Below, in pieces: positions 9,000-49,734 of a stretch of 64,000 nt of DNA. The notes under the pieces are model-generated. The model did no database searches. It had not been told where the DNA came from and saw only the letters and a program-made list of their open reading frames with translations. Origin of the DNA: Octopus vulgaris (taxonomy: Eukaryota); NCBI GenBank assembly GCA_951406725.2, contig OX597830.1, positions 2,790,001 through 2,854,000 on the forward strand, written 5' to 3'. The position numbers and the translations under genes are program-made. Every line of letters begins with the position of its first letter. The stretch's first letter is position 1.

Positions 9000-9178
9000 T
9001 TGACCGCTCGCCACTAAAGCTTTTTATTCTCTCTGTTTATTTCCTCGTGTTCCTTTCTGTTGAAGAGCACAGGCTTGAAACATAAAATACTTTCTTACCT
9101 TCCCAAGCATTAAACTAATACACCTGTTTCTTGTTTACACACCTGTCATTGCCTTTTTTTATTGTAAATTCCAACTAG
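9000..9178 (+). mobile_element. Short Penelope-like pLTR remnant with decayed hammerhead (9053-9087)
   Basis: Homologous to 17250-17432; ctgttga-a-gagc-acag-gctt-gaaa-cata. Confidence 0.65.
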
Positions 9179-9658
9179 ACAAATAGATAGATAGATGGAT
9201 GGATGGATGGATATGTGTGTGTGTGTGTGTGAATACATGAACACACACACACACATGCATCTACATTCACCAGAGAGGAAACATTTAGTCTTAATTACAC
9301 AATTGCATATCTTGTATATGATTTTCTCGATCGAAATGTCATTAGTGCATAGACCTGCAAATTCAGGTGTTAGCATTAGAAATAGTTAAAGCTTGTACTT
9401 TACTGTTTGACATACTTCTTAACAATGTGTGAATGTGTGTAGAACAACTAAGCAAAAAAAAAAAAAAAAAGAGAGAATATTTAAACAACTATCTGCTATT
9501 TTGCTTTTTGTTTTCTCTTTTTCTTTTTACCTGATAGTAATTCACTCACAATAAATATCAATATATTATGGAGTTAATCTTAGATAAGTAAATATGGCTT
9601 GACTGCAACATAAGAGAATTAGGTCTCGCATTGAGTTTTATCTCTGCTTTTATGACAG

Positions 9659-9718
9659 CCAGTTCAAGATTCAAGAACAAACTTAAGATGCACAACACAT
9701 TTCATTGGATGCAGTTTC
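9659..9718 (+). CDS. Candidate 60-nt internal host exon, product unknown
   Basis: tctctgcttttatgacag| acceptor and |gtatgt donor; phase-1 reading SSRFKNKLKMHNTFHWMQF. Confidence 0.3.
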
Positions 9719-46875: not shown

Positions 46876-47059
46876 CTTAGAGTATATATTCCTTCTCTAC
46901 GATATTATGTCTTTGTCTCTATATCCACCAGTACATACACCAATACATGAGTTGCTTTATTGCATCTAACATCGTGACCGTGAAAAGCCAGACTGGTTAG
47001 GAAGACAGTGTGGTTTACTTGACATTATATAACTAATCACATTCTTATTTTTCCATAAA

Positions 47060-47276
47060 TACTGGGTGACCAAAAAGTAGGCTTACACTTATCACGCAGG
47101 CACTTTAAATTTCTTTTAAAACATTTGATTACATTCAAATTTCTATCTTACAATTAACGAAATTAGCAGAGAATAATGGTTTCATGTTCGTTTATAATTA
47201 AGATCTAAACTGTTAAAATAGGAATAAGAAAGAGAAAGTTGAATAACTGTAAAACCTAGTTTGGGGCCACCCTATA
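47060..47276. mobile_element. Tc1/mariner-type MITE
   Basis: TA-bounded imperfect TIRs ctgggtgaccaaaaagtaggcttacacttat / ataactgtaaaacctagtttggggccacccta. Confidence 0.7.
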
Positions 47277-49734
47277 TATATCCGTTGTTTAGACAATGAT
47301 CATATTAAACCTTTAAATAAAAACCTCATTTTAACAACCCTTATCAGAGACGAACCACCCAGGTATATATAGAATATACTTATAAAATGAGCAATACATT
47401 AATATACTAATTGTTTAATTTATTCACCCACCCCACGGGGTTTCGTTATATACCACATTGCAGCTAACATTTATCATCCTCACATCATCCTTAACCACTG
47501 ACAAGCCACAGAAAACACCACAAACATAAATGTTCTCAATATCTCTACAATTCCATTATCATCCTAACCGTTTCTCATCTAACTTTAACTGTCTCTGTTT
47601 TTTTTATTCTTGCTTTGTGACTTGTTTACATTTAGGTTTGCTTCACATCTTATAAAGATGTCAAATGAATAACTATGCTTCTGTCTATTTCATACATGTT
47701 ACGAGTTTTCTCATTTACAGTGCTTTATTATAATGTCATCAGTTGTCCTCCTCCTCCTCCTCATCGTCATCATTATTTTAATGTCCACTTTTCTATGCTT
47801 GCATGGGCTGGATGGTGTTTATTCAAGAATACATAAATATACATGCATATATGTGTGCATGTATATATAAATATCTACCTCTCACTACATATATATATAT
47901 ATATATATATATATATATATATATATATATATCAGAAAAATAAAATTTTTATATGTCTCAGCCACTCTATATATATATATATATGTCAAAATATGCAACA
48001 GAATATCCAGAGGTGATGCAGTATGACCGTTCCAAGCGGCTCCATTTAATTGAACAATGCAATCATTACATCAGTTTAAATGCAGAGCTATCCTCAGCTA
48101 CATAAATAAATAAATAGAATTAATTTAAACAGTTGGACACATTTGCATAATTTTATTTAAATTTTCTAAGAGGGTAAGAAGACAGAGAAAGTCCAGACTG
48201 CTCTCACTTCAGCTTAGAAGCTTGTTTGGGTCCTAGCTTGTCACAGATTTTTAGGGTCGGGTTTTAATTTATTGTCCTAGTTTATCAAATCTTTGTATAT
48301 CAAAATTCTCCGTGATTCTCCGTATAGAATACACTTAGTAGTGCTCAAAAGATTCAAACTGAGACTCTGATGTCTTTACAGGGGATCAATTCCATAAAGT
48401 AAAGAAAGGTGATAAGAGGGAGCAAATCAAGCTCGTATAGAGGCAATTATGGTGATAAACAAATGAGACACATCAAATATACCAAATACATAATATATAT
48501 ATATACATATATATATATATAAATATATATATATATATACATGCAAAACAGGAGAAAGCAGAAGGTGGAAACTATCAGACGATGAATTTTTGAAGTGTAA
48601 ATATATAAATATAGATATTTATATAAATAGGTCCAACTTACACAGAGTACAAACGAAAGAGAAAATTGAAAGAGTGGATGAAAGGTATTATAAGTCCAAC
48701 AGCTGTTTCTGGGGGCTCAGTAATCCATAATAATATTGGTAGACTTAGTTCATCACAAAATAAGATCGTATGGATACACTTAATATTGGGTGAGACAAGC
48801 ATCTGTCATCAGAGCAGAGGAGACCTTACCTTTCAGACCTTAATGTAGAGAAGTTCAAAAATGAAACTTTTCTGTTCTACAAAGAAACGGTATAATAATA
48901 TTGAAGTAAAAGTATTTGTAATCACATCATGGTAAGAAAGGTAAATATTTTAAATGCATCACACAGCCATCGATTCACTTTCCACTTCTGGACATGTGAT
49001 ACATTCTGTTCCCTCAGTGGCTAATGTCACTAAGGTTTTCTCTCATATACCAGTGGCACAAAATTCTTTATGGGCCTTACTGAAAAATCCCTTTAAAATA
49101 TGAATTTAGTAACAAATTTATGCATTCAGACATGAATATATCTTGAGTTTAAAACTTAATATGTCCCTTAGAGATCACAATTGTCTGCTAAATTGTTGGT
49201 TCTAAGATAAAGCCTTGTGTCCCAAACAAATATAGCTTCCCACATCGGCAGTTTTAAAGAAACTTCCATCAATATTCATTAAGGAATTTTTAAATAACTT
49301 TGTAGAGTAGTTTATTTTTCACATAATAGATACCTTGAAATATGGCCACAATTTGAAAAAAAAAATGGCAGTAAACACTAAGACTGCACTAAAAAGAGCC
49401 ACATTCTTAGTCTTTGTGTATTTTACACATATGATACTAAAAACATGAAAATAATGCAACTTTCTGTATGTGAAGGATGATTATATCATGTGATCAGTAC
49501 ATGACAATTTAATAGATGATTATTGACACATTTTGTCACGCATTTCGTCATTTGCATATTTTTTATTTATTATCAGTTTTTGTTTTGCAACAACTCAAAT
49601 CTCGATTTCTAATGATGTTTTGATGTGTTTACGGATATTTTGGCTTACATATTGTCATGCTGCTTTCTTTTGTTAATTGTTTGAATAATCAGAAACATGA
49701 AACTTAGAATAATGATGCAAGAATATTTAGTTTC

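Follow-up and report, generated by a model that had tools for sequence, protein, structure and literature searches.

The 64,000-nt stretch of the Octopus vulgaris genome analysed here (contig OX597830.1, positions 2,790,001 to 2,854,000; the window) is non-coding, microsatellite-rich DNA containing a series of short inserts with hammerhead ribozyme (HHR) motifs. Relatives of eight insert families (A to H; the insert at 15304 was left out) were searched for in the whole genome (2.8 Gb, 227 contigs), and fetched loci carry L-numbers below. The inserts are likely to be HHR-bearing terminal repeats of Penelope-like elements (PLEs), six of the eight families being joined to PLE open reading frames (ORFs), plus family B, a non-coding 557-nt unit and likely retrozyme that such an element would mobilise in trans. 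All of HHR, tail, inverted 5' copy and TA bias have been published for PLEs (PMC4209133, PMC8557442, PMC3846280). What is new is the presence of one tail per fold-back insertion, the obedience of retrozyme B to this one-tail rule, and a pair of A-box- and B-box-like motifs of RNA polymerase III (Pol III) type in the pseudo-long terminal repeat (pLTR) of a Poseidon-type element.

Hammerhead motifs and insertion sites

All 14 HHR motifs named in a preliminary description of this DNA were recovered, each to within about 10 nt, in inserts without useful ORF (Table 1). The description itself is thereby largely confirmed, and its interpretation in part. A strict descriptor of the minimal HHR (stem I of at least 3 bp, core CUG[A/U]NGA or UUGANAA, stem II of at least 4 bp, GAAA, palindromic or hairpin stem III, and N17 not G) was matched at four positions, 17310, 22616(-), 22989 and 46052, against a mean of 0.02 and a maximum of 1 in 100 block-wise dinucleotide shuffles of the window, and the ten remaining motifs are decayed or atypical copies. 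The loop-less palindromic stem III also described is clear in family majorities, about half of the window copies being broken, and is replaced at 32192 by a hairpin. No hammerhead family was among the best 150 of 349 Rfam matches to the window, which were microsatellite-driven miRNA-type models, none at gathering score.

The motif is recovered in family alignments: among fetched copies, core, GAAA and palindrome were together intact in 8/27 for A, 50/53 for B, 28/29 for C, 21/39 for D, 9/26 for E and 28/32 for H, for which the retained sequence is TTGACAA...ACCGGT. Family G is intact in one of 25 copies, the one in which A9 is kept, and family F retains GAAA and its hairpin stem III in 13 of 25. 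Stems I and II vary in sequence from family to family with pairing kept. The 10.1-11.1 pair is absent in B and E, and H either lacks it or has two unpaired bases there, which may represent a recurrent variant in three unrelated families. Like published minimal HHRs, those of the octopus families show a palindromic stem III, an extra base after A9 and a U3-A8 core variant (found in C, H and one further young family, and reported in PMC4209133), and they likewise occur as many families per genome, mostly as single truncated motifs, with opposite-strand pairs 100-700 bp apart. They differ in the family-wide A6 to U change of A, the A9 to C change of G, the lack of the 10.1-11.1 pair in B, E and H, and the 94-nt stem II region of E; the octopus goes unmentioned in the available part of that literature.

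All eight searched families proved to be multi-copy. First-look candidates numbered 3873 for A, 2526 for B, 1537 for C, 1791 for D, 1614 for E, 1540 for F, 508 for G and 2238 for H, numbers that differ from copy numbers, 40 candidates being scored per family. In a control of random DNA (forty 10-kb regions from 13 contigs, 400 kb in total), 17 family hits and seven strict motifs were identified, with none in shuffles (n=10); scaled up, these correspond to roughly 70,000-190,000 family hits and 20,000-100,000 strict motifs genome-wide. The comparison of four strict motifs in 64 kb with seven in 400 kb, for a window that had been chosen for its HHR trait, gave a Poisson p of 0.027, or 0.10 when counted by insertions. 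A window-specific density was therefore dropped: the density of HHR inserts is a genome-wide trait, and the window is at most modestly enriched. The suggestion that diversity and density here might be undescribed has against it these random-DNA hits and the publications cited above. A total of 31 recently active Penelope-like families are reported in Octopus vulgaris (PMC13282606, ribozymes not being discussed in the available part), and the present families may already be catalogued; a literature search found no paper on octopus HHRs. Two further HHR families were met in the random DNA only, at L293 ~3150 (-) and L266 ~5190 (-).

The proposal that TA microsatellites serve as a landing pad holds for B, C, G and H and partly for A and F, and fails for D and E. 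Ends with (TA)4 within 30 nt (background 5%) amounted to 29/30 for C, 33/33 for H, 42/49 for G and 2/42 for D, and within a 50-nt span (background 7%) TA was found in 15/25 for A, 15/25 for F and 5/25 for E, the TA-rich stretch of E, also at window 48695, being internal to the element. The statement that most window inserts lie in (TA)n is likewise right for 15304, 15951, B, H and C, loosely for 32188, and wrong for 9053, 17306 and D.

Coding sequences joined to the families

As judged by sequence comparison, A, C, D, E, F and H are 5'-truncated PLE ends rather than separate non-coding families, because each runs elsewhere in the genome into DNA coding for PLE reverse transcriptase (RT) and GIY-YIG endonuclease (EN). 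By their motifs, three families would be Neptune-type (A, C, H), one Poseidon-type (D) and two Hydra-type (F, E). The link to PLEs and to RT plus GIY-YIG ORFs put forward in the preliminary description is thereby borne out for six of eight families, and its several non-autonomous, non-coding families are reduced to B and possibly G. Across PLE families, a pLTR with HHR, 5' truncation, an inverted 5' copy and a tail were met with, no tail being defined for A and F.

For family C, a 796-aa ORF in locus L203, in which RVT_1 and GIY-YIG both exceed their Pfam cut-offs, precedes C sequence by about 0.7 kb, and parts of this type of ORF are arranged likewise in L201, L202, L204, L205 and L214. For family H, L196 and L197 can be aligned along 2935 columns, starting at the H end and reaching into an ORF that shares 45-52% identity with the one of C; GIY-YIG scored above the Pfam cut-off in L197, and coverage drops off 5'-ward; graded 5' truncation is seen in H, C, E and F. 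The inserts at 9053 and 17306 are 83% identical (9000..9177 versus 17250-17432) and form one family, A, to which that at 15304 is related. In L109 and L115, 1192 aligned columns lead from an EN-like ORF through to the A end, and L215 and L161 share this layout; GIY-YIG of L215 gave E 0.006, below the Pfam cut-off, and tblastn against the L203 ORF E 4e-31. Relatives of 15304 in fetched flanks retain ACGT, and one of 72% identity (L200) lies downstream of a Neptune-type EN, with 2.7 kb of CA-rich DNA between. Preferred 5' ends of 15304 and of short A and D copies may reflect solo-pLTR copying.

In the EN alignment of A, C and H, residues C13, C16, C41, C52, C55, H74 and H91 are invariant, and the first linker C of CX2-5CxxC is present in three of four rows. 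The three families are assigned to the Neptune type because these ENs share the linker and the CCHH-type residues given for Neptune in PMC8557442. A very young TA-targeting Neptune-type family was also encountered (L374:4405-9022, L306-L335, L361-L380), with one EN peptide score in about 140 of 150 scored copies, many 753-aa open frames, a unit of about 4.6 kb between HHRs, and a 367-codon frame ahead of the RT-EN ORF, for which no Pfam match was found. Like Neptune-clade PLEs (PMC8557442), A, C, H and the young family have a single RT with C-terminal GIY-YIG and the CX2-5CxxC linker, microsatellite bias, an inverted 5' copy and a tail; unlike them, they have long low-complexity 3' untranslated regions (0.5-2.1 kb), and the young family its 367-codon frame.

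Family D continues 3' into an ORF start, its HHR preceding that start in several loci. Of 25 loci identified through its RT, 14 have the D head after the end of the ORF and 12 have an inverted D copy upstream. The D-linked ORF gave RVT_1 at E 2.7e-6 and 27.7 bits, below the cut-off of 29.6, and its GIY-YIG was uncalled by Pfam. The pLTR is ordered as A-box-like and B-box-like motifs 44 nt apart, (AAT)n and then HHR. With one mismatch to the box patterns allowed, the A-box was identified in 41 of 48 hits of the D head and the B-box in 29, mostly at the 44-nt spacing, and 15 of 17 heads begin near the A-box. ARAGORN made no tRNA call in 25 loci, Rfam gave no tRNA match to the head, and a listing-level literature search found no paper on a pLTR with A-box and B-box. 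These boxes could be a captured Pol III promoter. In the window such motifs lie at 45940-46015 (-), as at L229:1270-1345, with few TTTT runs downstream. D as a stand-alone short interspersed element (SINE) was ruled out, the head sitting inside an autonomous pLTR. Like Penelope/Poseidon elements and PAc of Anolis (PMC11167929), D has its HHR just before the ORF start and its tail inside the ORF start; as in PAc, neither a linker zinc finger nor TA-microsatellite bias was seen. The box pair and (AAT)n ahead of the HHR set it apart from PAc.

An EN remnant with Hydra-type CxxC and CxH motifs, read in translation, lies upstream of F in L144, and F is found about 350 nt downstream in 17 of 25 loci of the EN-end query. 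Pfam made no call on this remnant, a weak homologue search found nothing, and a lead comes from an Atlas neighbour that bears the name GIY-YIG at 0.95. Upstream of E, an EN-like remnant was detected in two of three extended loci (L206 and L208, tblastn E 0.002 and 1.5e-5) and no RT or EN by Pfam, so that the putative link of E to PLEs is the weakest of the six. F and E would resemble Hydra-clade PLEs (PMC8557442) in a C-terminal EN in which CxxC and CxH surround E and N, a CxC-type linker, a more canonical HHR and, for F, TA insertion. They are unlike that clade in being known here from decayed EN remnants alone, no RT having been recovered, and, for E, in not being TA-flanked; the linker spacings in the F and E translations are 4 and 6, not 5.

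Single-tailed fold-backs and the families B and G

The four asymmetric inverted repeats with one tail pointed out in the window (G, B, C and D) were confirmed, and the regularity recurs at other loci. With window insertions included, one tail was found in 11 of 12 two-ended B insertions, the other having neither (L007, L013 and L019, with no second end, were left out), in all three of C (L022 and L031 being one insertion), in 13 of 13 of D (L055 by outer arms), and in 8 of 8 of H and 24 of 24 of G, where the query held the tail and the counts hence test only that both arms never bear it. A prospective set of 20 inverted pairs was taken from the young Neptune-type family, separate from the above, by protein search blind to tails; 19 had one tail and one had two (p 2e-5 versus 50:50). 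Each family thus scored has two alternative 3' ends. Tail asymmetry as such is known, and its near-obligatory form was not found in the literature searched. The dimer-type palindromic stem III and the tail proposed beforehand are supported.

Family B was found in 15 distinct insertions solely as a 556-558-nt unit of 34% GC, from partial copies to tandems of 5.6 units, with a longest stop-free frame of 77 codons; identity to the window arm is 96-100% among the top 40 copies, and L210 has five consecutive HHR motifs at 556-558 nt spacing. The ends of B map to two fixed positions separated by about 100 nt, each an internal TA patch, and all 15 left and 14 of 15 right ends adjoin TA. In the window, B has an inverted arm of 1.35 units that bears the tail and a tail-less sense arm of 0.76 unit; elsewhere either arm may be longer and the tail may be on either. 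Parts of B are covered by contigs of four sequencing runs of uncertain kind, uninformative on strand, ends and circles. In structure, B qualifies as a non-LTR retrozyme, young and with PLE insertion hallmarks. Like non-LTR retrozymes (PMC7229834; bioRxiv 10.64898/2026.07.22.740005), it is a non-coding tandem unit that has a single type-I HHR in each unit, a GC content below 45%, forms from monomer to multimer, and co-existing PLEs. Its 557 nt exceed the 150-450 nt quoted for most of them, yet lie within the range of 51-972 nt. Unlike them, it has a minimal rather than a canonical HHR, and TA target, inversion and one-tail ends are not described in the available parts of those sources. Mobilisation of B by a Neptune-type protein is inferred from its target and ends.

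Family G is a unit of about 220 nt with a 52-nt tail and a recurrent 5' end, top copies being 92-99% identical. No tandem arrays were seen among 25 loci, and no coding partner was found in the 25 searched and four flank copies. G as a fixed fold-back or miniature inverted-repeat transposable element was ruled out by random copies with other junctions (L283, L304) and by the tail occurring on either arm. B is likely, and G possibly, a non-coding parasite of PLEs. An isolated 50-nt relative of the G tail lies at window 21622-21672, in TA-rich DNA between B and H.

Table 1. Inserts of the window and their HHR motifs
Insert	Position	Strand	HHR and remarks
Family A, decayed 3' end (pLTR) of Neptune-type PLE	9000..9177	+	HHR remnant 9057-9084; ACGT palindrome absent
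A-related insert between TA runs	15209..15400	-	HHR 15307-15334, core CUGAUGA intact, stem III broken (ACGT absent)
Family G fold-back in (TA)n	15793..16112	+	HHR-like 15956-15989 (A9->C, common to 24/25 family copies); inverted tail and 50-nt inverted end, then sense unit
Family A pLTR end	17250..17432	+	Minimal HHR 17310-17337, core CUGUCGA, ACGT palindrome; matches strict descriptor
Family B inverted arm, 1.35 units, ends at distal (tail) site	20209..20960	-	HHR 20498-20541, G8->A
Family B sense arm, 0.76 unit, proximal-site end, no tail	20959..21381	+	HHR 21149-21192, ACGUACGU palindrome, GUU site, A.A at 10.1-11.1 (pair absent)
Family H, 5'-truncated 3' untranslated region/pLTR with 37-nt tail, Neptune-type, between TA runs	21690..22159	+	HHR 22040-22072, broken (G5->C, palindrome broken)
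Family C inverted arm without tail	22517..22712	-	HHR 22580-22616, U3-A8 core, ACAUGU
Family C sense arm with tail, Neptune-type PLE 3' end	22711..23126	+	HHR 22989-23025
Family F, Hydra-type PLE 3' end	32167..32310	+	HHR 32192-32266, hairpin stem III (ACY-GATT-GGT)
Family D inverted arm without tail	45794..46015	-	A-box/B-box head; decayed HHR 45852-45887
Family D sense arm with tail, Poseidon-type pLTR, outside (TA)n	46020..46180	+	HHR 46052-46087
Family E, old (about 80%) 3' end, probably Hydra-type PLE	48440..48860	-	HHR-like 48698-48812, 94-nt stem II region, ACAGCUGU, 10.1-11.1 pair absent

Other hairpins were noted in the window. A near-perfect 70-nt hairpin between TA runs (30655-30776) is probably another very short fold-back insertion, and a short hairpin adjoins (TA)n at 15056-15125, each with relatives in two other fetched loci; at 3649-3776, an inverted (ATC)n/(GAT)n repeat encloses a short core and is likely to be the folded-back end of a common SINE or long interspersed element (LINE). 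A mariner-type transposase remnant lies at 36504-37043 (-) (Pfam HTH_48, E 4.7e-16). Two frames without Pfam hit at 0.01, at 12840-13511 (+) and 58603-58971 (+), are presumably akin to a transposase of Tc1 type and a LINE endonuclease of restriction-like type, respectively.

Proposed priming of the insertions and rival explanations

A more far-reaching reading, which falls somewhat short of being probable, is that the one-tail rule results from a dimeric RT-endonuclease priming the two nicked strands at different RNA start sites in a single coordinated event, and that B is a non-coding, probably circular RNA parasitising this reaction of TA-targeting Neptune-type elements. In the favoured explanation, the PLE RT/GIY-YIG protein, probably a dimer, would nick both strands of the target, (TA)n for the Neptune type, and each nick would prime reverse transcription inside the pLTR RNA, one at a proximal and one at a distal start site; in B, C, G and H an internal TA patch of 4-8 nt would assist. 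Head-to-head joining of the two cDNAs, each 5'-truncated, would then produce a single-tailed asymmetric inverted repeat, and most events would end within a few hundred bases, leaving ORF-less stubs. Tandem transcripts would be cleaved by the HHR acting as a dimer by way of its palindromic stem III; in B, cleavage would free monomers or circles as template for cDNA of more than unit length, and such a tandem or circular template would account for arms that exceed one unit. Insertion itself probably does not depend on cleavage. For a Poseidon element in vitro, cutting and extension of both strands, a predicted dimer, insertion by HHR mutants, and two internal RT start sites matching the tail ends have been reported (PMC11167929).

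A number of points weigh against this explanation and the wider assignment to PLEs. The RT start site is non-homologous to the cut DNA and equal on both strands in PMC11167929, which hence does not predict the one-tail rule; the two-tailed prospective pair and the tail-less B pair break that rule, and for H and G it was tested on one side only. In PMC3846280, the PLE types of a rotifer were found not to cross-mobilise one another, and head-to-head inversions are ascribed to self-priming on an antisense template. No autonomous element sharing sequence with B or G was found in 38 PLE-bearing loci or in 1.6 Mb of fetched loci, so that the case for trans-mobilisation of B is one of architecture. 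The clade names are those of motifs and not of a tree. Finally, B, E and H without the 10.1-11.1 pair and G without A9 may not cleave, and only one of nine Xenopus retrozyme dimers cleaved in vitro (bioRxiv 10.64898/2026.07.22.740005).

Fold-back and single tail might instead follow from one priming event, after which the cDNA primes itself or folds back and the endonuclease trims one of the arms. We regard this as a real possibility, though on the doubtful side: it predicts exactly one tail just as well, EN-mediated resolution is given as the origin of the tail in PMC8557442, self-priming from junction palindromes is argued in PMC3846280, and a hairpin native to the D head, GCCC-AC-GGGC, lies at many of the junctions. 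The two start sites mapped at tail ends and the extension of both strands in PMC11167929 speak for two primings, however, as does the fact that in B the longer arm and the tail-bearing arm can each be either. It is unlikely that most inserts are independent non-autonomous HHR families, either retrozymes or SINE-like solo pLTRs copying themselves as short units. Such a description is true of B and possible for G, and agrees with recurrent termini, in that about 14 of 25 A copies end within about 15 nt of one point (by eye), five of 11 relatives of 15304 among those listed begin at one motif, and the D heads mostly begin near the A-box; short transcripts made from a promoter inside the pLTR could serve as templates. 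In six of the eight families, however, the sequence runs on into ORFs, truncation is graded in H, C, E and F, and top-hit sampling favours copies spanning the query. More improbable still is an origin of B from a deleted PLE end by local, satellite-like amplification and spread at the DNA level, its HHR being a dead passenger. Arrays of up to 5.6 units and an atypical stem II would fit, and local tandem amplification is discussed in bioRxiv 10.64898/2026.07.22.740005, yet B is scattered over many chromosomes at 96-99% identity, its arrays lying within single TA-bounded insertions with inversion and two fixed ends.

Most of what was found, namely PLE stubs with HHRs inside TA repeats, is biology already known, here met in a new host. 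The origin of the inverted copies and tails of PLEs and the mobiliser of animal retrozymes are open questions according to PMC8557442, PMC11167929 and PMC7229834, and both become testable with thousands of young insertions, a one-tail regularity that is near-absolute, a retrozyme-type unit with PLE insertion signatures and a young Neptune-type family in which some 140 copies have an identical EN peptide. The latter family, very young and intact, is usable for reconstitution. If coordinated priming underlies the single tail and B is a parasite of this reaction, the octopus insertions would provide direct evidence, at the level of the genome, for the mobilisation of animal retrozymes by PLEs.

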